A stretch of 64,000 nucleotides of DNA from NCBI GenBank assembly GCA_963827985.1, contig CAWHDI010000023.1, positions 26 to 64,025 of the forward strand, written 5' to 3'. Positions 13,645 through 30,749 of the stretch are shown one piece after another (positions within the stretch are counted from its first letter, which is position 1; every line of letters begins with the position of its first letter). This DNA comes from an uncultured Chloroflexia bacterium (lineage in GTDB: Bacteria; Chloroflexota; Dehalococcoidia; GIF9; UBA5629). Below the pieces are notes generated by a model. The model searched no databases. It had not been told where the DNA came from and saw nothing but the letters and a program-made list of their open reading frames with translations. The translations under genes were made by a program, and so were the position numbers.

Positions 13645-14641
13645 TTACCGTACGATACGCAGGGTGCCTCCCTTGATAAGCGCTTCCACCTCTTTAAGGT
13701 CGCTCCAGCAGAAGTCTCCGGGTATCGAATGTTTAATAGCGGCCAGGGCGTTGCCGTACTGCAACCCCATGTCCACACCGCCGGATAGATAACCGTATAT
13801 GAACCCGGCCGAGAACGAATCACCCGCTCCCACCCTGTCTATGATCTCCACCTCGTACATTTTATCCCTGTGTATCTTGCCCGCGGAAAAAGCAATTGCG
13901 GTCCAGGTATTCTTAAGCACTGATAGATCGCCTCTTAATGTAATGGCGACTGCTTTGAAACCGAATTTTTGGGCCAGTTTCCGAGCAGTCTCCTCGTAGT
14001 TTTTCCCTTTCAGGCCAAATACTTTGTTGGTATCTTCTTCGGTGGTTATCAATATATCCACATAGTCCATTAACGGTGTCTGGCATTTGCTGGCCTCCTG
14101 CGTGGTCCACAACTTGGCACGATAGTTCAGATCGTAGCTGACGAGACACCTGTTTTTCTTCGCCGATTTTAGGGCGGACAGTGTGGTTTCAGCAGCGGTT
14201 TTACTTAGGGCCGGGGTAATGCCGCTCACGTGAAATGCTTTGGATTGGCTGAAGATTTTATCCCACTCTATGTCAGGTGGGCTCAATGAGGCTAACTGAC
14301 GAGTTTTGGCGGTCGTAAAGGACCTGGCTTGCCCGGGGGGACGCACCGAACTCCACGAAATAGAGGCCCTGGCGGCCCCTTGGGCTCAGGATTACGTTTG
14401 ATGTGTCAACTCCCTGCTCGCGCACTTTATTGCGTACCATTTTTCCCAGTTGGTTATCGGGTACTGCTGAAATCCATGCGCATTTGAGTCCCAGCCTGGC
14501 CGAAGCGACGGCTACGTTGAGTTCTCCTCCGCCCACCTTAACGTCGAACAGGTCAGTCTGCTCCAGTCTGTGAGAGCACGGAGGTGACAGGCGCACCATT
14601 GCTTCTCCAAATGTGACCAGGTCGAATTTTTTCTGCCTCAT
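13645..14641 (-). CDS. kdgK: 2-keto-3-deoxygluconate kinase (PfkB family), one frameshift near 14280
   Basis: TFGEAMVRLSPP, GGGELNVA, FHVSGITPALS, YDLNYRAKLW, DRVGAGDSF; two overlapping ORFs. Confidence 0.85.
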
Positions 14642-17755: not shown

Positions 17756-19163
17756 TCAGGGCAGCGATTCGAAATCAACCGCTATAACGGTTGCATACGG
17801 TTCAATTACAGACTCGGGCACGGTAATTACGATGTCGCCTACGGGGTCGTTGAAGTTCGCCAATTCCTTGCGAATCTGATCGAATAAGGTAATCCTTTTA
17901 ACAAATTGCAACTCCTTACCCGAGCTCAAAATATGTACTGATTTAATCTTGTTGACATGAACCGAGCGCATCGTGACCGTTTCGTAGGGTTTGGCCAGCA
18001 GGTGCAGGTAAACGGTATTTCCCTTCTGCGTGGAAGGGCCATAAAACTGCCACGGCTCAAGACCGGGTTTAGTTCCGGTAATGCTCTCGTGGTTTTTCGA
18101 CATCCAATCTGCGATGGCATTAAGGCGGTCGATTTGTTCGGGCGGCAGTTGGCCGTCGCCCATAGGGCTTACATTAAGAAGCAGATGCCCGCCCTTGCCT
18201 GCGACCTCGCACAGGGTCTGGATGAGCTCGGTAGCTGACTTGTAAGACGGGTCGTCCTTGTTATAGCCCCAGCTATCATTCATTGTCATGCAGATTTCGA
18301 AGGGACGGGAAGGTGGTTGGGCCGGGATAAATTTTTCAGGCGTATCAAAATCTCCCTGCCCGTATAGCCGGTCATTGATTTTTATGCCGGGCTGAAGCTG
18401 CCTGTACCATTGCTCCCATGTCCTGGACTTTCCAGTCAGCAGGCTTATGTTCAAACTGGCCATCGAACCAGATTTCATCGATCTTGCCGTAGTTGGTAAG
18501 TATCTCCCGTACCTGGCCGAACATGAAATCCAGGTATCTTTGCCATTGTTCAGGCGGAGGTAGGGGTGCGCCCAGGTAGTAATGATACGGTTTATCAGCT
18601 TCGGTAAAAGCGGGATAGTCCGGATGGTGCCAGTCTTTCATATTGAAATAAAGTCCCACGCCCATGCCTTCGGCCCGCACCGCATCGACATAGTCACGTA
18701 TCAGGTCTCTGCCCACCGGCGAATGCATGACTCCAAAATCGGAAAGCTTGGTGTCGAACATGGCGTATCCGTCACCGTGCTTGGCGGTCATCACAGCGTA
18801 TTGTGCCCCCGCCTTTTTGAAGAGCTTGGCCAGGGCAACCGGGTCCCATTTCTTCGGATTAAATGTTGCGGCACTGCTCTGATACTGTTCTACAGTCATG
18901 TTCTGGCAGTAGGGCATGGTGAAGGTCCCGCCTGCCAGCGGCCAGGATATTTCGACGCCCTGCTGCGAAGAATGCGACCAGTGTATGAATATGCCAAAGC
19001 GGGCATCTTCCCAGTTTGTAAAATTATCGCCGGCATATTTTCCGCTTGTCTGGACCTGACCAGGAGAAGTGCAGCCTGGCAGGATAAAGGACAGTGTCAG
19101 GATAATGGATACGAAGATGACTGTCGGTAAGCGGAACCAGTGTCCGTTGCTTCCAAGTTTCAT
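17756..19163 (-). CDS. GH29 alpha-L-fucosidase-like lipoprotein, one frameshift near 18420
   Basis: ARFGIFIHW, MTAKHGDGY, DWHHPDY, WFDG, INDRL, EICMTMNDSWGY, LLNVSP; lipobox ILPGC. Confidence 0.85.
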
Positions 19164-19371
19164 CCGCGTCCGCCAGGCTGTAAAGGGAAGAAAATTACGT
19201 TTGTACATCCTGCCTCCAATTTGATGGGGAAAATACTGCCAGTTAATCTGCACGTATAGTAAGGAGTGTGTATGGTTATGATAAGTGCAACCTCGGTCAC
19301 TGTCAAGCTGCGCAGGACAGTACCTGTATAAAAGAATCTGTCAGTTGTTTATTGGGGCAAAGATCTTTTTT

Positions 19372-20963: not shown

Positions 20964-21030
20964 AAGATACCTCCTTTATTTAACCGGGGTCGCCTGCGCC
21001 GCTTCAAAATAGGCTAAATATTCAGGGCGT

Positions 21031-22479
21031 TCAATTATTGGCAGCTCCTTTCATTATTAATTTTGGTGTGGCCTGTTCAGGTTTATAGGTCATCTTGCTG
21101 ACAATCCACATCAGCATCAAGCTGACCGCCAGGCTGATGATAATAGGTTCCAGCCAGGGGATCTCGATAAATTGTTTTATGGCGTAAAGGGCAACGCACA
21201 CTATTGTGGAAACTATGCTGCTTACGATCGCCCCCTGGCGGGTGGCCTGTTTCCAGAAGAAAGCGGCCATGGACGGGACAAATACAGCCGATACATAAAC
21301 AGCAAAGGCGAGCAGAAGTATATCGAAGATGCCGCGCATGACCAGCGCAAAAACAATGCCGAGCGCACCCACAGCGACGATGACTATTTTAGCCCACAGA
21401 AGCAGTTTTTTTTCACTCGTTTGTGGGCGGGCAGCCTTGATTACATCATTGGCTATGGTTGTGCCGGATATGAGCAACGCGACCGAGGCCGTGCTCATCA
21501 TCACTGCCATCAAGCCGGCAAGGCACAACCCAACAATCCCGGGAGGGAGGAATTTCACTATCATAGCCGGGATCACTGCATCAGTGGAGCCATAGGTGGA
21601 CGCAACTTGGGGCAGCAGGCTGATGCCCAGTATGCCAAGGATCACCACGATAACGGACCAGTAAAGGTAAACCCCGGCTGTTACGAATAGCGAGTTTTTT
21701 ATTACCTTTCCGCTTCTGGCAGCGTTGGCCCTCTGCCAGAGCCCGGGATCGACCATACAGAAGCAGAAATCGATGATCCAGATGGAAATAAGGTAGACGG
21801 GAGATACGCCTCCCACCGTTCCTGCTTGTGTAGATTGCCAGTTACTGACCAGTGTTGCCGTCCCGTCGCCTGCCAGAAGCATCAAAGGCATGATGATGCC
21901 GATGCTGACCAGCATGATTATGCTCTGTATCAGGTCGGTGTAGGCCACGGCAAACAGACCACCCAGCACCGTGTATATAATCATAATGACCCCGGCCAGG
22001 ATAATGGAGGTGGAATAGGTAAGCCCGATCGATTTGCCCACTGCAGTAAATATAAGGCCGATGCCGATTATCTGCCCGCCGAATAAGGCTATCACGGTGA
22101 TGAACATGGCGGCGCCGCAGGCCAAATTGATACCGCTGCCATAGCGTTTATAGAGGGCATCCGGTATGGTCCAGATGCCCAGCTTGCGCAGCCTGCTGGA
22201 AAGTAATCCAAAGACGATCAGCCCGGCGATATAGCCGAACCCGGCCGTCACGAAGATGATGCCCATTTCATAGGCTTTTGCGGCCTTGCCCATGGTGGAG
22301 GCTGCCCCGATGGCTGCTCCTACGAGTGTGCCGATCATGACTACGTAGCCCAGGGATTTACCAGCCAGGGCGTAATCGTCCAGGTTTTTTATCTTCCGCT
22401 GGAACCAGATGCCCACACCTATCATCAAGAGCAGGTAAGCGGCTATCACGCTGATATCGATCCAGCTTATATCCTGCAT
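21031..22479 (-). CDS. Sodium:solute symporter family transporter
   Basis: 482 aa multi-TM; DYALAGKSL, YTVLGGLFAVAYTDLIQ, WQR, AVMMST. Confidence 0.9.
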   Translation of the reverse strand: MQDISWIDISVIAAYLLLMIGVGIWFQRKIKNLDDYALAGKSLGYVVMIGTLVGAAIGAASTMGKAAKAYEMGIIFVTAGFGYIAGLIVFGLLSSRLRKLGIWTIPDALYKRYGSGINLACGAAMFITVIALFGGQIIGIGLIFTAVGKSIGLTYSTSIILAGVIMIIYTVLGGLFAVAYTDLIQSIIMLVSIGIIMPLMLLAGDGTATLVSNWQSTQAGTVGGVSPVYLISIWIIDFCFCMVDPGLWQRANAARSGKVIKNSLFVTAGVYLYWSVIVVILGILGISLLPQVASTYGSTDAVIPAMIVKFLPPGIVGLCLAGLMAVMMSTASVALLISGTTIANDVIKAARPQTSEKKLLLWAKIVIVAVGALGIVFALVMRGIFDILLLAFAVYVSAVFVPSMAAFFWKQATRQGAIVSSIVSTIVCVALYAIKQFIEIPWLEPIIISLAVSLMLMWIVSKMTYKPEQATPKLIMKGAANN

Positions 22480-22509
22480 TTAAGCGCTCCTCCTTTCACT
22501 TTACATCTG

Positions 22510-23701
22510 CTACAGCTTTATAACTACCGTTGGTCCGGTCGCGTATCTTTCAAGGGCAGCCTCGTCAAGTTCCACTCCCCAACCCGGACCATGAGGCACT
22601 CTGACCGTGCCTGCACTGAAATCCAGTGGAGTGATAATCAGGTCATCTTCGTACATCACGTTGCCGAAAAGCTCGGGAGCATGTCCCAGGGAAGAGTAAT
22701 GCGCTGTTGCCAGGTGTATCATCATTGAGTCGGCAATTCCCAGCGTCTGGTTATGTATGACTACTCCCGTCCTTTGGCGAGTCGCATACTTAATAGCTTC
22801 CAGGGCGTTGGTCACTCCTCCGGGGCGCTCTGAATTGATGCCTATTATACGCACGGCCTTCAAGCTCATGAGTGTATTAATGTCTTGCAGTGAGAAGCAT
22901 CCTTCGTGCGACATTAAAGGAGTGTTTACTCTGCACTGAACGTAAGCCATGCCTGAGAAATCGGTGGCGGATACAGGCTGTTCAGCCAGTTCAATATCAA
23001 AAGGTTCTATCGCTTTTATCGCCTCGACTGCATCCTGAGGGCGATATGCTTGATTGTAATCTACTCGTATGCGGGCCTTCTTTCCCAGTCGTTCCCTAAC
23101 GAGCTGCACGATTTCCGTATCGTCTTTCACATTTCTGCCCAATTTCAGACGGATTGTATTGTAGCCGGCCTGCTGCCAGCCGCCCGCCATATCTGCCATT
23201 TCCCGGGCATTCATGAGAGGGACGAGAGCGGCCAGCTCGAGCGAATCAGACTGTTTGCCCCCCATCAGTTCGCAAGCCGGCTTTTTCTTTTGCTTTCCCA
23301 TGAGGTCCCAGCAGGCCATATCCAGTATGCCTTTGGCAGTCTCGCTGCCGCGCAACGTTGTTGTTCATGTGAAGGCGGACTTTCTGGTAATCGAAAGGGC
23401 TCTCTCCGAGGACGTATTTGTATAGAGCTTCCTGCACAGCCAGGATTATCTGTTTGGGGCTGACGCCGGTTTCAGGCCACCAGACGAACTGCTCCCCCAA
23501 CCCGGTATTCCCTGCTTCGTCAGTTAGTTTGCAGATGGCGAAGTCTCCTCCGGGCCAGTCCTCTTCCGCTGCTATCGCCATACCCAGACCCCCGGCATGT
23601 TGCATAGCTTCCCGTACCATTTGCTTGAAGGGAACCTGCAAGGGCGTAAGTTCAATGCCGACGATTTTAGGCTTTTGTTTTGGCATTTTGTTTTTCGACA
23701 T
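22510..23701 (-). CDS. Mandelate racemase/muconate lactonizing enzyme (enolase superfamily), one frameshift near 23350
   Basis: GNTGLGE, DMACWDLMGK, RVDYNQ, AEQP, VPHGPGWGVELDE. Confidence 0.85.
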
Positions 23702-23781
23702 TTGCCCTCCGCTCGCTGCTGACCTTTTGCCGGAATTGCTATATTCTAATCTTTTGCTAATGGTTTTGACTACAGCAACCA

Positions 23782-23810
23782 TTGACGTATTCGGGAGAAA
23801 ACGGTATATT
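23782..23810 (+). promoter_or_regulatory. sigma70-type promoter for the 23855 gene
   Basis: TTGACG-17-TATATT followed by RBS ggagg. Confidence 0.5.
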
Positions 23811-23854
23811 ACGGTAGCTTTGAAACAGCATTAAATGCAGGCGGGAGGATAGCT

Positions 23855-24415
23855 ATGAAGGATGAAAAAACGGTCACTCCCCGTCGGACCTGGAAAACAT
23901 ACCTGTCTGTGTTCATGCCTGTAATTCTGCTGATAGGGTTTGCCATTTTTTTTTCAGGTTCTTCTTCCAGTAGTGATTGCGGATCGGACTCTGATTGCAG
24001 CAGTTCCGGCGCCGACCTCAGCGGGTCGTGTGGGGAACCTGCCAATTTAGATAAGAGCGGGACAATCAGGACGCTGCAATCGCTCAGTCTCAAATCCGGC
24101 TCGACGGACACGCGATGCGGATACGGCGTGAGCTGGAAATACAGCTGGACAAAAGAGAAGAAACCTCCCAAGACTCCCAACGTGAGCATCTCAGTCAGCG
24201 GCCCCAAGTCGAGCTCTTCCAAAGTCAACAGGTCAGATACGGGCGGGTCCGACGGCTGGTCAGGTACCTATAACGTTGCAAGGGGCAGCGTAGGGGGAAA
24301 AGATCCGATCACCGGCACTATAACAGTTACAGCTTCTTTTACACCGGACGTGACGTCGCTTCTTGACTCGGTAAATGTCAGCCTGCACCTTGTATACTCG
24401 CCGCTTAAGAAGTAA
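23855..24415 (+). CDS. Hypothetical membrane-anchored/secreted Ser/Cys/Gly-rich protein
   Basis: 186 aa; RBS; N-terminal hydrophobic helix, SSSSSDCGSDSDCSSSG linker, beta-rich C-terminus. Confidence 0.65.
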   Translation: MKDEKTVTPRRTWKTYLSVFMPVILLIGFAIFFSGSSSSSDCGSDSDCSSSGADLSGSCGEPANLDKSGTIRTLQSLSLKSGSTDTRCGYGVSWKYSWTKEKKPPKTPNVSISVSGPKSSSSKVNRSDTGGSDGWSGTYNVARGSVGGKDPITGTITVTASFTPDVTSLLDSVNVSLHLVYSPLKK

Positions 24416-24448
24416 AACCAGGCCTGCGATTCAACGCAGGCCAGGTTT
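24415..24448. terminator. Bidirectional intrinsic terminator
   Basis: aaacca-ggcctgcg-attcaa-cgcaggcc-aggttt hairpin between convergent genes. Confidence 0.65.
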
Positions 24449-24467
24449 GTAATCTCACGGAATACGC

Positions 24468-25180
24468 TTAGAATTGGAATTTCCTGGGTGGCCTTCCCTT
24501 ATTTGTTCTAAGTACAATCAATAGCAACTTGTTTATATGGGCAATATATGGCTGTTCACCATTTCTACTTTGCCAGTCCCATAACCATTTATTAAAGGCT
24601 TTAACATCATTGTAATAATCTTCAACTAAATCATATATGATTATATAGTCTCCAGAGCGTAGAATTCTTTGTCGTGCCAGCAATTTCCACTCTTCCCATT
24701 TCAACAAAGGTCCTGTTCTAATTCTAATAGTCCGTTCCTCTCCTTCATCCCTAGTCCATTGCCAATGGTGAGAACCTTCCACGAGGCTAAAATGAAGCAT
24801 GTAATTGCGAAGTCCTTGAATGAGCTGATGGTTTTCGTTTTGCTCAAAACGTTTTTCCTTTGGATTTCTTCGTTATACTCATTTCTGAAAGATGACAGTT
24901 GGGGTACAGAATCAAGCTTGTTGGCTTCATTTCTAGTATGGTCCACCAGAGTCATCGCCCCTGCAGCAAAGTTATGGAGGAGTCGTATTATTTCTTCGAT
25001 AATATAGAAAGAATTTAGATTGGGTTGAGTCTCTATCCACAATGCAGTTGATTCAGGTGATTCGTAGAATATTAATGCTTTCGCTAATTGCTCATAGTTG
25101 CCACAGAACAATCGAAACGTCGGCTCAACTGAGCCGGAGACGGGTGGTAACAATTATGTGTTTATTTCGACAGCGGTCAT
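24468..25180 (-). CDS. HEPN-like (Cthe_2314-type) putative RNase, frameshifted
   Basis: Stitched: ...IIRLLHNFAAGAMTLVDHTR...EIQRK/RFEQNENHQLIQGLRNYMLHFSL...; RNYMLH is an Rx4H motif; ATG at 25180 with gaggagg RBS. Confidence 0.6.
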
Positions 25181-25580
25181 CCTCCTCTTTCTTTGGACTT
25201 TTTCAGCTTTTCAATCGCCTTCCCAACTTTCAGGAATTCGATAAGAGAAAATGTCGCTTTTTGCATTGTTGCAAGGGTAACAAGCTAAAACACAATTGCT
25301 TGGTGAATACAGAGACTTGGCATCTTTTCTATCAACCTCTAAATTAAATCCCCTTTTCCCTTGCCTAAACTGTCTAAGATAATACTGCTGGGTATCCCCC
25401 AGGTAGATGACAATAATGGCATCCGTTTTGCGCTGCTAACTGGGCTTCATACCAGGAATAGAAACTGTCCCGACCGTCTTTCCATTCTGCGCAACAATTA
25501 TTCTTGATGCGTTGATAAACCGAATAAAGATGGCGTCTGTTAATCATCTGTCCTTTCCCCAGTAGTGGCATATATTCCAT
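25177..25580 (-). CDS. HNH endonuclease-like protein, frameshifted
   Basis: Stitched: QNGCHYCHLP...RGFNLEVDRKDAKSLYSPSNCVLACYPCNNAKSDIFSY/EFLKVGKAIEKLKKSKERGG*; two CxxC pairs plus the ..N..C..CN pattern. Confidence 0.7.
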
Positions 25581-25755
25581 ATAATCTATTATAGTCTCAT
25601 TGAATGATTAATAACTTGTCATCCACGTGTGATTACTAGCATGCATGTTAATCACGGAATCGAACCAGCCGGCAAAATCCGTTAGCTACCCATTGGATAT
25701 TTCAACTTTAACCGGATTTGGAACTTAGCGAAAAGGTCAGATTAAATACGAAAGG

Positions 25756-25832
25756 TGGCACGCCTGGAGGGATTCGAACCCACGACCCTTGGTTCCGAAG
25801 ACCAATGCTCTTGTCCACTGAGCTACAGGCGC
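25756..25832 (-). tRNA. tRNA-Arg (TCG)
   Basis: gcgcctgtagctcagtgg...ttggt-cttcgga-accaa...ggttcgaatccc...gcgtgcca; cloverleaf with encoded CCA. Confidence 0.95.
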
Positions 25833-26020
25833 ATAGTACCGGTCTGTTGTTTTTTTATACGTTCCATATTTTACCAAAATTAGGCAATTGGTGATACTTG
25901 GAACGAGTGGCAGTTGTATATGTGGGGGAGGTTGGCCTGCAGAGAGGTAAACAGTCGAATATGGCAACGGAGCCGGGCAATGCAGCTCCGGTTAATAAAG
26001 CATGGCTATGGATCCGTTAT

Positions 26021-27919
26021 TTAGTTTCCTGATCCAAAAGTATTAATCAGCGGCAGAATTTTGCCCTTGTAGCCGGTTTGTCCCTGGTATTTATCCAGGA
26101 TGGCATTGATCTGCTGGCCATACTGGTCAGATTTTAGCCTGGTCCTTGTCCTTCCAGGCCTTTTGCAGCGCCGTCAGGCGGTACAGCTCCTCGGCAGGAT
26201 AGATATCGCTGGTCTTGATATCTTCGAGGATGCTGATCACTTTGTCGTAGTTTTTGGATGAAAGGCGGCCAGCCCGGCAAACAGCTTGTACTCGACATTG
26301 TCAGGTTTCAGGGCGTAAGCCTTCTCGAAATAGCTGGCGTACTTATCAGGCTGTTTGAACGCGAAGGCGTGCCACCCGACAATGAACTGGGCCTGGGGAT
26401 CATCACTGTATTTGGCAGCCAGTGCGGCATAATCTTTCAGGACGTCTGCAGTATCCGGAAGCTGGCGCAGGTCGGCATAGTCCTGGGCGGCCTGTTTCAC
26501 GCCGATGGCCTTGCGGTAAAGTGTCGGCTGTTTGGAGAAATCGTTATCTATATAATAGATATCCCGCCGGCTGGCGTAAGTGGGGTTGAGCGACATGTAC
26601 ATGCCCTTGCCAGTGGGGTCGTACATGATAAAGAGGTCGGAATTCAGGTTGCTGACGGGCCATTTTGTGCCGGACCAGGAATAATCCGTGCCGTCCGGCC
26701 CAGTAATCATCTGCATGGCAGCGATACCATCGTCGATGGTATAGACATCCTTGACCTTGAATGTGGATGCGATCTTCCAGCGGTCACCGTTAGAATCTCC
26801 CCAGGGGACACCGAAACCCATGCTTTTGCTGGCTATCTGCTGCGGATAAAGCTTGGGATCGGTGATATCGTTGAAGACGAAAACCGGGTTGTTGTCTTTC
26901 AGTTCACGCTTGGCTATAGAGGTGGGCGTGATCTCGAAGACAGCTCCTGTGCCGGCCTTCTGGTCACTGAGGGTGACTGTGTAACCGTTGATAGGGAGAT
27001 GCGTGGCGAGGACCTTTTCAGCCTCGGGAATGCTGGAACACTCTTCCAGCAACACACGGGCGGTAAAACCGGAGGGGAACCCGTCGGCGTTGGGGTTATT
27101 GGCACGTGTCATATTATGGGCGAAGGTAATACGCTTGTCGTTCCAGCCCTGGTAGATGCCGCCGATAAGGCCGGCGTAACTGACCTCCGTTACTGCATTG
27201 TATTCCCTGGGCTTTTGACGAGTAATGATCTGGTACATTGAATTCCCCAGCGTGCCGCCCCAATCGTGGTTACGCGCATGGATAACTGTGCCGTTGGCGC
27301 CTTTCAGCAGCACACCGGCGCAGGCCGTGCTGTCATATATCCTGCCGACGTCGTACATCAACGTATAGGTAACAATATCTTCATAGGACAGCCCGCTGCC
27401 CTCGGCAATACCCTTCATCTCGTCTTGATACCGCTGAGGCAACTGCTTGGCCATTTCCTGGGCAGGATCCTTCATGTATTTAAATCCCTCCACAGGATCA
27501 TAGCCGCTGCTCCGCAACTGCAATTCTATGATCTTGCCCCAGATGTCGATGGACTTGTAAATCTCGGGGCGGGCCAGCACACCGTACTGCAGCCCCATCT
27601 CGTAATAGTCTCCGGACACCTCCAGCATGACTGGCACCCCGGTATAGCGGTAGATCACACCATCATGGAAGGTGGATTTTACGCCATTGGTGACAATATC
27701 CTTGCCGTACGTTGTATCTTTGGCCGAATCCACCCAGTACTTGCGGATCAGTTCCCCGGTGTCAACCGAAGCGTACAATTGCTTCGTTTGTGTGGTGATA
27801 GCAGCATCAGCTGCGCTCATTGCGGGCGCCGGGCTGCACCCGGCGGCCAGGCCTATGACCGTAATGATAATGATCAGGGCCGACAGTGCCTTGTAGTAGA
27901 ACCATCCGTGTTTGTACAA
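26021..27919 (-). CDS. Peptidase C45 / Ntn-hydrolase lipoprotein with C-terminal TPR-like region, copy 1 (frameshift near 26250)
   Basis: Lipobox LAAGC; GDYYEMGLQYG, EMKGIAEG, TACAGV (N-terminal nucleophile Cys), HARNHDW, GWNDK. Confidence 0.8.
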
Positions 27920-28841: not shown

Positions 28842-30749
28842 TTAATTTTGTGTCCCGAGGGCGTTGATAAGAGGTACAATTCTTCCCTTGTAGCCAGCCT
28901 GTCCCTGGTATTTATCCAGTATGACGTTGATCTGCTGCCCGTACTGGTCCGATTTGGCCTGGTCCTTATCCTTCCAGGCTTTTTGCAGCGCCGTCAGTCG
29001 GTACAGCTCCTCAGCAGGGTAGATATCGCTGGTCTTGATGTCTTCCAGGATGCTGATCACCTTGTCATAGTTCCTGGATGACAGGGCAGCCAGCCCGGCA
29101 AACAGCTTGTATTCGACATTGTCCGGCTTCATGCATAGGCCTTCTCGAAATAGCTGGCATATTTATCCGGCTGTTTGAGAGTGAACGCATGGAAGGCCGC
29201 CATGAACTGCGCCTGGGGGTCATCAGTGTATTTGGCTGCCAGGTCGACATAGTCTTATCTGTCCTTGTCGTTATAAATCGGCAATTTCTGGCGGAGGTCG
29301 GCATAGTCCTGCGCAGCCTTTGTCACGCCGATGGCCTTGCGGTAGAGTGTTGGCTGCTTGGAGAAATCATTGTCTATGTAATAGATATCCCCCCTGCTGG
29401 CGTAACTGGTATTGAGGCCCAGATACATACCTTTGCCGTTGGGGTCGTAGGTAATAAAGACGTCGGTCATACAGGTTGCTGATGCCTTGCCTGGTGCCCG
29501 ACCAGGAATAATCGTGCCGTCCGGCCCTGTAATCATCTGCATGGCGTCAATGCCGTCGTCGATGGTATATACATCCTTGACTTTGAAGGTGGAGGCGAGC
29601 CGCCAGCGGTCGCCGTTGGTGTCGCCCCAGGGAACGGAGAAACCCATGCTCTTGCTGGCTGTCTGCTGGGGATACAGATCTGGTCGGTGATATCATTGAA
29701 GACCCAGACCGGGTTATTGTCTTTCAGTTCACGCTTGGCTCAGGCCGTAGGCGTCATTTCGAAGACTGCGCCTGTGCCGGCATGCTGGTCGCTGATGGTG
29801 CATTGAAGCCGTTGACGGGGAGGTGCGTGCTCAGGACCTTTTCAGCCTCGGCAATGGTAGAACATTCTTCCAGTATAATCCAGGCAGTAGCACCGGAAGG
29901 GAAACCATCAGAATTGGGTTTTCTGACTGTCGTGGTATTGTGGGCGAAAGTAATTCCCTTGTCGTTCCAACCCTGGAAAAGGCCGCCCATATTACCGGCC
30001 CAGCCCACTTCTGTTACCGTATTATATCCTTTGGCCTTCTGGCGGACGATATCAGGTATTTGTTATGTTCCTGAGCGCCGCCGTCGCTGCAATCCCTGAC
30101 GCGGGCATGGATGACGGTGCCGTCAGCGCCCTTCAGCAGCACACCGCCGCAGGATGTACTGGCCCAGATCCTTCCGACATCATACATTAGCGAATAGGCT
30201 ATGATCGCTTCCACCGGCAACCCCGTGCCGTCGGCAATGCCCTTCATTTCATCCATAAACCTTTGCGGCAGCTGCTTGGCAAGTTCGACGGCAGGATCCT
30301 TCATATACTTAAATCCATCCACCGGGTCGAGCCCGCCATTGCGTAAGTTCCGCTTCAATGATCTTGCCCCAGGCATCGATAGCCCCATAAATCTCGGGGC
30401 GCATGAGTACTCCGTACTGCAGCCCCATCTCGTAATAGTCGCCCGAAACCTCCAGCATTGGGGGCAGGCCGGGATAACGGTATACCACACCGTCATGGAA
30501 GGTGGATTTTACGCCGTTTATTACTATATCCTTGCCGTACTGCGTATCTTTGGCCGAATCTACCCAGTACTTGCGGATCAGTCCCTTGGTATCTACCGAA
30601 GTATAGAGTTGCTTCGTCTGTGCCGTGATAGCGGCATCAGCCGGACTTGCTGCGGGCGCCGGGCTGCATCCCGCGGCCAGGCCTAATACTGTGATGATAA
30701 GAATGAGGACCGATAAAACTTGGTAACATAACGTTCCGTGCCCGTTCAA
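28842..30749 (-). CDS. Peptidase C45 / Ntn-hydrolase lipoprotein, copy 2 (multiple frameshifts)
   Basis: Paralog of 26021-27919 throughout (LIRKYWVDSAKDT, STFHDGV, TSCGGVLLKG, PWGDTNGDRW, KPDNVEYKLFAGLAA). Confidence 0.8.

Follow-up and report, generated by a model that had tools for sequence, protein, structure and literature searches.

The window analysed here is the whole stretch of 64,000 nucleotides (nt) formed by bases 26-64025 of contig C23 (CAWHDI010000023.1) of G000, a metagenome-assembled genome (MAG) of 2.02 Mb in 53 contigs that is 56% complete. Just 3' of a tRNA-Arg gene in this window, we found an AT-rich islet carrying two genes on the minus strand, each broken by two frameshifts in a three-frame translation: gene A, encoding a putative PacI-family endonuclease, and gene B, encoding a helical protein with an RNxxxH motif. 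We favour, with a probability of about 0.55, the reading that these are two autonomous mobile accessory genes residing in a tRNA-flank hotspot, whereas a first-pass annotation of the same DNA had proposed a dedicated DNase plus RNase module. The two genes and the islet are as follows.

25177..25547, minus strand: gene A, HNH (His-Me finger) endonuclease of the PacI family, by homology, about 124 amino acids (aa); its three pieces tile intact homologues
24533..25153, minus strand: gene B, RNxxxH helical protein, possibly HEPN-like, about 204 aa; DNA and protein match to an intact orthologue
24415..25697, no strand: variable AT-rich islet, 1283 nt, GC about 0.38-0.41; absent at the syntenic site of G767, a genome of the same genus

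Reading frames of genes A and B

Gene A probably starts at the ATG at 25547, which was picked by homology (alternative ATGs lie at 25580 and 25571), and stops at the TGA at 25177-25179. It reads in three frames, containing CHYC..., LEVDRKD and NCVLACYPCNNAKSD; the first break is one extra base at 25397, inside a run of G, and the second, at 25240, leaves one base where relatives hold three (a codon). The pieces cover intact homologues of 124-138 aa from end to end, with identities of 70%, 77% and 40%, which upholds the small HNH-like protein that the first-pass annotation had obtained by re-joining frames; its family is, more precisely, that of PacI. Gene B starts at the TTG at 25153 and stops at the TAA at 24533-24535, giving the C-terminus ...MVNSHILPI, and is broken by five extra bases at 24855-24860 and one extra base at 24562. 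Its pieces contain the RLLHNF, LVDHTR and GLRNYMLH segments already recognized as belonging to a second, helical protein, and they cover, end to end, P0002, an intact protein of 207 aa from a Dehalococcoidia MAG (locus L002), with identities of 84%, 73% and 78%; at the DNA level, the L002 gene is 84% identical to the window over 25150-24534, with the same 5-nt and 1-nt length differences. The earlier length of about 235 aa, reaching to 24468, had missed the break at about 24562. Translational coupling of the two genes through an ATGA (25180-25177) had also been proposed, but this ATG opens an ORF (open reading frame) of only eight codons ending in TAA, and homology to the orthologue begins at the TTG, leaving a gap of 23 nt between the stop of A and the start of B.

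Short-read contigs from Logan, belonging to four peat/wetland metagenome runs (X1-X4) with small run shares (best 0.26), were aligned to positions 24400-25900. Those covering the islet were 97-99% identical to the window, and their 4-12 substitutions per 250-386 nt indicate that they stem from near-identical populations. They differed from the window in length at the following positions.

24562: -1 (run X1)
24855-24860: -5 (runs X1, X2 and X3)
25396 (25396/7): -1 (runs X1, X3 and X4)
25239: +2 (run X3)
25420: +3, in frame (runs X1, X3 and X4)

The in-frame insertion at 25420 supplies a residue that is also found in homologues. With the contig indels applied, both genes became open frames, of 144 codons in A (124 aa when counted from the Met that homology supports) and of 204 codons in B. 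Similar splits were observed elsewhere in the window: a PfkB kinase gene (13648-14641) and an alpha-L-fucosidase gene (17759-19253) each appear as two overlapping ORFs, which match successive portions of a single Pfam model, and internal stops interrupt an AAT-family gene at about 29063-30743, a paralogue of the one at 26240-27919. Together, these split genes and the frame-restoring contigs make it most likely that the assembly is indel-prone and that the four frame breaks in the islet are assembly errors, so that genes A and B are probably intact in the cell. The first-pass annotation had allowed that the frameshifts might be real and the genes decayed; since the contigs restore the frames, this is probably not the case.

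Families of the two proteins

Judged by its sequence, gene A is a member of the PacI family (His-Me finger group 20) of the HNH superfamily. Its own family comprises 276 clusters at E<=0.001, most of them of 55-85% identity and mostly from short metagenome contigs; database labels are McrA for some (JGI) and HNH endonuclease for some (NCBI). An alignment of 45 members showed invariant C-x-Y-C, L-E-V-D-R (rarely K), Y-S-P and N-C-V-L-A-C-Y-P-C-N-N-A-K-S-D, including the four cysteines C44, C47, C91 and C94. Of 120 family proteins, 117 have VD[RK] and none has VDH, a Tyr follows in 114 (D[RK]...YS), and the canonical His general base is missing from all 120; at this place, gene A of the window reads LEVDRKDAKSLYSPSN and the aligned PacI reads VDRSDSFEGYSPQN. 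A profile of the 45 homologues searched against the PDB matched PacI with an E value of 1.4e-14 (57.6 bits, profile 27-118 against PacI 47-135), the pieces of the window gene being 70-77% identical to the family members used in this comparison. The best AlphaFold2 (AF2) model of the A homologue P0154 had a pLDDT of 82.0 (54.6-59.1 in the other four models), and Foldseek with the A model ranked PacI (3ldy_A) first, with E 4.3e-5, TM 0.61, 27% identity and a probability of 1.00, followed by Gme HNH, McrA and Cap5. Intact homologues scored 27.6, 25.7 and 21.5 bits against the Pfam HNH model (PF01844, cut-off 21.4), the match being limited to the C-terminal half, at profile positions 23-46 of 47, and the middle fragment of the window gene alone scored 18.5 bits, under the cut-off.

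In the pertinent passages of PMC4081073, PMC5714182 and PMC3384342, PacI is described as an enzyme in which a loop tyrosine replaces the histidine, and those of PMC5714182 and PMC11529989 present it as apparently lacking a methyltransferase and relying on the absence of its site from the host. By analogy, gene A may employ a metal-binding Asp followed by Arg, not His, with the loop Tyr taking the role of the His, and would cut double-stranded DNA site-specifically as a solitary nuclease of restriction or homing type without a methyltransferase. If A is active, its specificity probably differs from that of PacI. A viral library search with A returned uncharacterised giant-virus and phage proteins; the homologue P0154 gave weak partial matches alone to phage and plasmid records (seven phage records and three plasmids), and the A5, A6 and A7 profile scans of viral contigs revealed no relative of A or B, A7 giving two partial matches of 19-43 residues. 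PADLOC-DB v2 returned just weak PtuB matches to the A fragment (E 0.0056-0.025).

As an observation on G000 itself, CAGCTG was counted 284 times where a Markov model predicts 666 (a ratio of 0.43), and several 8-mer palindromes containing CTAG are absent from the genome. These patterns may reflect other restriction systems or a general avoidance of CTAG.

The family of gene B is larger. HMMER with P0002 retrieved 1103 cluster representatives at E<=1e-3, 338 of them at E<=1e-10, mostly of 235-260 aa, together with long forms of 361-704 aa in which the domain is N-terminal. An alignment of 60 members shows no variation at N22, N64, R117 and H122, and RNxxxH is present in 114 of 151 family proteins, fragments included, the motif of the window protein being GLRNYMLH. 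Pfam, NCBIfam and PADLOC hold no model that fits the family consistently: among 60 members, no PADLOC-DB v2 model was matched by more than two, and nothing exceeded the NCBIfam cut-off. A PDB sequence search with the B profile gave nothing relevant, ESM Atlas searches returned just unnamed clusters, and protein P0057 had no phage match. Of the same 60 members, 48 matched phrog_12680 (best E 6e-16) and 16 matched phrog_30874, indicating that the B family is already catalogued among proteins of prokaryotic viruses.

HEPN proteins are defined as a superfamily by a conserved Rx4-6H motif, and searches with one HEPN family often fail to detect another. In the AF2 model of B (pLDDT 92.6), which is mostly helical, four long helices precede a short one that terminates in the motif; a beta-hairpin and then a long helix at the C-terminus complete the structure. 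VIA-align placed six HepT/HEPN chains among the top 50 rows, namely 7ae2 (Z 8.7), 8xdj (8.7), 1jog (8.1), 1ylm (7.9), 5yep (7.2) and 1wwp (6.6), with 7ae2_A aligned over 126 of 141 residues at a root-mean-square deviation of 3.8 A. This modelled fold suggests, at most, a HEPN relationship. On balance, we think it somewhat probable that B is a HEPN-like RNase, in which case it may act as a stand-alone effector of abortive-infection or exclusion type. The first-pass annotation had called B a HEPN RNase; the invariant RNxxxH and the helical bundle resembling HepT/HEPN bear this out in part, but no profile method confirms the HEPN assignment.

The tRNA-Arg flank and other loci of gene B

The islet is bordered on one side by the tRNA gene and its flank, and contains a hairpin near the other end.

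25756..25832, minus strand: tRNA-Arg, anticodon TCG (ARAGORN; Rfam tRNA, 66.4 bits); its 3' end faces the islet
25698..25755, no strand: conserved tRNA 3' flank, 58 nt, outside the insert and common to G767
24421..24442, minus strand: hairpin resembling a terminator, its tail rich in T, about 90 nt past the stop of B; also inverted repeat I2

The GC content is 0.37-0.42 over about 24350-25700, against 0.52-0.55 on both flanks. G767, which is 89% complete, matches window positions 21000-24414 with 84% DNA identity; the homology stops at 24414 and restarts at 25698, where window 25698-25833 is 85% identical to G767:C23:7927-8062. Between these matched flanks, G767 carries 2.76 kb of different content (L073 195-3010), comprising the gene of a chagasin-type lipoprotein inhibitor, a stretch of 47 nt that duplicates the 3' half of tRNA-Arg, and an MFS/MFS_2 transporter gene, and genes A and B were not found in its 89% complete sequence. 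The partial tRNA copy looks like an integration scar. Conserved flanks around different content delimit the islet to 24415-25697 and place it in a recombination hotspot, and we conclude that it is a foreign insert in a variable region 3' of tRNA-Arg. The first-pass annotation was therefore right about a variable hotspot at the tRNA 3' end, since G767 holds other cargo there, and about an AT-rich islet of roughly 1.3 kb, which the drop in GC supports, but it had included the last 58 nt, which are conserved flank.

The islet shows several marks of a tRNA-linked island, being an insert at a tRNA 3' flank, missing from a close relative and deviant in composition. Two further marks were sought and not found: PF00589 integrases had no match on contig C23 (in G000, matches lie only on C19 and C34), and neither att-like nor tRNA-derived direct repeats, including flanking repeats of the tRNA 3' end, were present in 24200-25900. 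The segment may be described as a small, presumably horizontally acquired cassette, in which A and B, on one strand, are probably co-transcribed up to the hairpin at 24421-24442. This hairpin is the sole terminator-like site in 24300-25950, where shuffled sequences average 1.4. A promoter scan was uninformative (four sites against 3.7 expected), and Rfam identified on the islet the tRNA alone. The 560-aa neighbour encoded at 26240-27919 was not found in 30 other genomes of the family, and synteny was taken from the G767 DNA.

Outside the window, we collected 14 loci that carry B: one lies in an NCBI MAG, ten are on JGI contigs and two related genomes contribute three, with L011/L012 and L013/L014 being near duplicates and L007 a truncated paralogue of L005. 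Tyrosine integrases adjoin B in L011, L014, L015 and L016, the same ORF is present in L012, and in both L011 and L012 a tRNA-His gene precedes B. Six loci have B genes 9-15 GC points under their surroundings. Comparison of P0002 with phage and plasmid records gave one match, of 27% identity, on a Micromonospora plasmid. We take the B family to travel on prophages and integrative elements, frequently next to an integrase; in the phylum sample, 3 of 401 genomes contain it.

Several of these loci are described here individually. In a group of related soil metagenome contigs, L011 (3304-5468), L012 (3022-5186), L014 (3902-5900), L015 (247-1801) and L016 (3-1755), a B gene of 259-263 aa adjoins a convergent tyrosine integrase; in L011 and L012, it is placed between the tRNA-His and this integrase, at the edge of an integrative element. 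On the mobilizable Micromonospora plasmid NZ_CP108881.1 (L031 4914-6657), the B homologue, annotated as hypothetical, is located directly upstream of a tyrosine-type recombinase gene. The lone B orthologue of L002 (JAQUQM010000027.1, 4970-7600) lies inside an AT-rich patch of 2.6 kb (GC 0.38-0.39 against 0.50-0.56), which also holds a divergent membrane-protein-like ORF and a 148-aa ORF, neither with a Pfam match. In L003 (696-1152, genome G043), a B gene of 248 aa is closely preceded by a DUF1902/HicA pair of toxin-antitoxin type and by the gene of a pterin-4a-carbinolamine dehydratase.

Relationship between genes A and B and comparison with known systems

The homologues of A and B do not occur as a conserved pair. 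In tblastn searches with four A homologues, none of the 14 B loci carried the A family, the only matches being the window's own loci, and an HNH protein of any kind was present in one of the 12 B loci scanned for neighbours. The closest B gene (L002, 84% identity) lacks A and resembles the DNA of the window over the B gene alone. A was found in one genome out of 401 in the phylum sample and in five out of 401 in the class sample, counts that include G000; the distant A relatives thus placed in four other genomes had no B-profile match within 1.5 kb. Fusions were likewise not observed, the A domain being absent from 151 B proteins, the B domain from 120 A proteins (a set limited to 70-224 aa) and any fusion from 18 long B forms scanned with Pfam. 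PADLOC-DB v2 matched neither protein to a known anti-phage system, in agreement with the first-pass annotation, which had been unable to name one, and a full-text literature search, neither exhaustive nor extending to supplements, found no paper on the pair. With co-occurrence at 0/14 B loci and 0/4 A loci, and no coupling in the sequence, the dedicated module of the first-pass annotation was not borne out. A and B may be adjacent either because both are mobile cargo that reached the same hotspot or because they were co-acquired once, and they would not form an obligate two-component system; their enzymatic activities and any role in defence are what we infer from homology.

A number of observations nevertheless weigh against this reading, and most of them fit an alternative that we consider rather unlikely, in which this lineage possesses a true module of two genes, A and B, co-transcribed and fused in some strains, with a PacI-type DNase lacking a methyltransferase and B serving as an RNA-directed effector or as a regulator or immunity partner restraining A. 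The genes are 23 nt apart on the same strand, have similar GC (A 0.41, B 0.40) and are followed by one terminator-like site after B; such tight spacing, equal composition and single terminator fit one operon acquired as a unit. A contig of X4 bridges the A-B junction and contigs of X1 and X2 bridge the tRNA-A junction, indicating that the arrangement is stable in the population. The X4 contig also has -1 at 25186 and +5 at 25147/8, which, with the other indels, would join A and B into a single uninterrupted frame of 358 codons, a hint of an A-B fusion that would argue for functional linkage; however, this frame comes from one 243-nt contig at depth 3, and we estimate that a matching frame with an open linker of about 15 codons would arise by chance roughly one time in six. 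A comparable arrangement occurs in G388, a genome of the same order (L005 268-2241, G388:C3), where a distant B-like protein of 299 aa (RNYTQH, profile E 1.2e-9) is followed directly, on the same strand, by a 282-aa HNH_2 protein (PF13391, E 8.2e-5) that is nonhomologous to A; against its weight, a search for further cases of this pair found P0272 in 1 of 301 genomes, which is G388 itself. The truncated B-like paralogue L007 of G388 sits at a contig end. PacI-type enzymes without a methyltransferase, as presented in the pertinent part of PMC5714182, leave room for another mechanism of control. In G000, the PacI site TTAATTAA is not avoided, with 27 occurrences against 27.8 (Markov) and 26.2 (zero-order) expected, from which it follows that A either has another specificity or is not an unrestrained nuclease. 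Moreover, the A-side test covers four distant relatives only, the 276 clusters of close relatives lying mostly on short metagenome contigs. What tells against a module is the missing association at the B and A loci, the solitary nearest B with DNA homology ending at the gene ends, and the lack of fusions and of a PADLOC match. Generalizing from this locus to a compact defence cassette at tRNA flanks, combining a DNase with an RNase or a nuclease with its controller in adjacent or fused genes, is also unlikely; if such a coupling of PacI-type and HEPN-like proteins were true, the RNxxxH/HNH_2 pair of G388 would be a second instance of the same design.

The identity of B is the other point at which the preferred reading is exposed, as its HEPN status is unproven and not confirmed by profile comparisons. 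Foldseek with the B model found no PDB match at E<=0.001, and in VIA-align generic and designed helical bundles equalled the HEPN Z values (up to 8.9), helical bundles of many unrelated functions scoring like HEPN in this search. With HEPN sequences drawn from related genomes, hhalign gave a probability of 0.15% against 16 PF05168 sequences and of 0.5% against 17 PF01934 sequences (E 0.11, 10 columns spanning the two motifs), and no HEPN model stood among the 25 of 45 Pfam families listed for 60 B members at E<=0.1, each of which was matched by one member. The absent profile match lowers the HEPN claim without excluding it. These results, together with the position of B directly beside tyrosine recombinases in the soil family L011, L012, L014, L015 and L016 and on the Micromonospora plasmid, could also mean that B is no nuclease and is instead an accessory of integrative elements, regulatory or recombination-associated, with RNxxxH in another role. 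We regard this as decidedly unlikely, because the invariant R, N and H are the residues of the HEPN catalytic motif, the sole hhalign stretch to HepT sets GLRNYMLH of B motif on motif over GMRDVLIH, B is also found at a distance from integrases (in L002, L003, L008-L010 and the window), and in the forms of 361-704 aa the domain makes up the N-terminal part of otherwise uncharacterised proteins. Prophages keep defence cargo beside the integrase, which again weighs against such an accessory role. It is more improbable still that both genes are decaying pseudogenes in a dead mobile-element remnant, with real frameshifts and a lost ATG in B. Four frame-breaking indels lie within 1 kb, the one at 25240 outside a homopolymer; B lacks the ATG of its orthologue, with a gap of 10 nt, and the ATG upstream runs into an in-frame TAA; neither an integrase on the contig nor an att-like repeat in 24200-25900 was found; and the related contigs derive from near-identical but separate populations, which does not prove that the copies of this strain are intact. 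On the other hand, indels aside, every conserved motif is kept, with no in-frame stops inside the homologous parts, the TTG at 25153 is available as a start for B, contigs of 97-99% identity from four runs restore the frame at all four places, and unrelated metabolic genes of the window are split alike, as an error-prone assembly predicts.

If A and B are two autonomous mobile genes, as we prefer, then in a fragmentary and error-prone MAG, and with a two-gene system unsupported, the value of the locus is as a pointer to two families and not to a system. Gene A would give the His-less HNH nucleases of the PacI group a large bacterial branch, drawn mostly from metagenomes, and small enzymes resembling rare cutters are of practical interest. 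The B family, for which there is no curated model, is a reasonable candidate for a new stand-alone gene of HEPN-type exclusion or abortive infection, in view of its invariant RNxxxH, its prophage- and integrase-linked siting and its consistently foreign composition.

Among known proteins, the predicted product of A most resembles PacI (3ldy/3m7k). Both are small (about 124 aa against 142 aa) and would share two CxxC pairs as zinc knuckles and a beta-beta-alpha-metal core, with V-D-R in place of D-H followed by the Tyr-Ser-Pro loop and CxxCN..KS, and no methyltransferase adjoins A. Unlike PacI, with which its identity is about 27%, A has an N-terminal third (LYSVYQRIK..CC.EW..FY.WY) that is unmatched in the profile alignment. 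The corresponding part of the survey by Jablonska et al. (2017) counted four bacterial members in His-Me finger group 20 (PMC5714182), against the 276 mostly metagenomic A clusters found here. Like the HepT/HEPN toxins, B is modelled as a helical bundle in which an R-[ND]-x-x-x-H motif follows the third long helix, but it differs in having no significant sequence or profile similarity to them, in being longer (about 205-250 aa) and in carrying a beta-hairpin inserted behind the motif and additional helices at the C-terminus. It also differs from the type VII HepT-MntA systems in that no MNT nucleotidyltransferase is encoded near it, A being its only neighbour in the islet and none being found by a Pfam scan of 29 neighbouring ORFs from 12 loci. 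The phrog_12680 and phrog_30874 families are without a name or an assigned function, P0002 itself not reaching either at E<=0.01. In contrast to the paired HepT-MntA, B is mostly solitary or integrase-adjacent.

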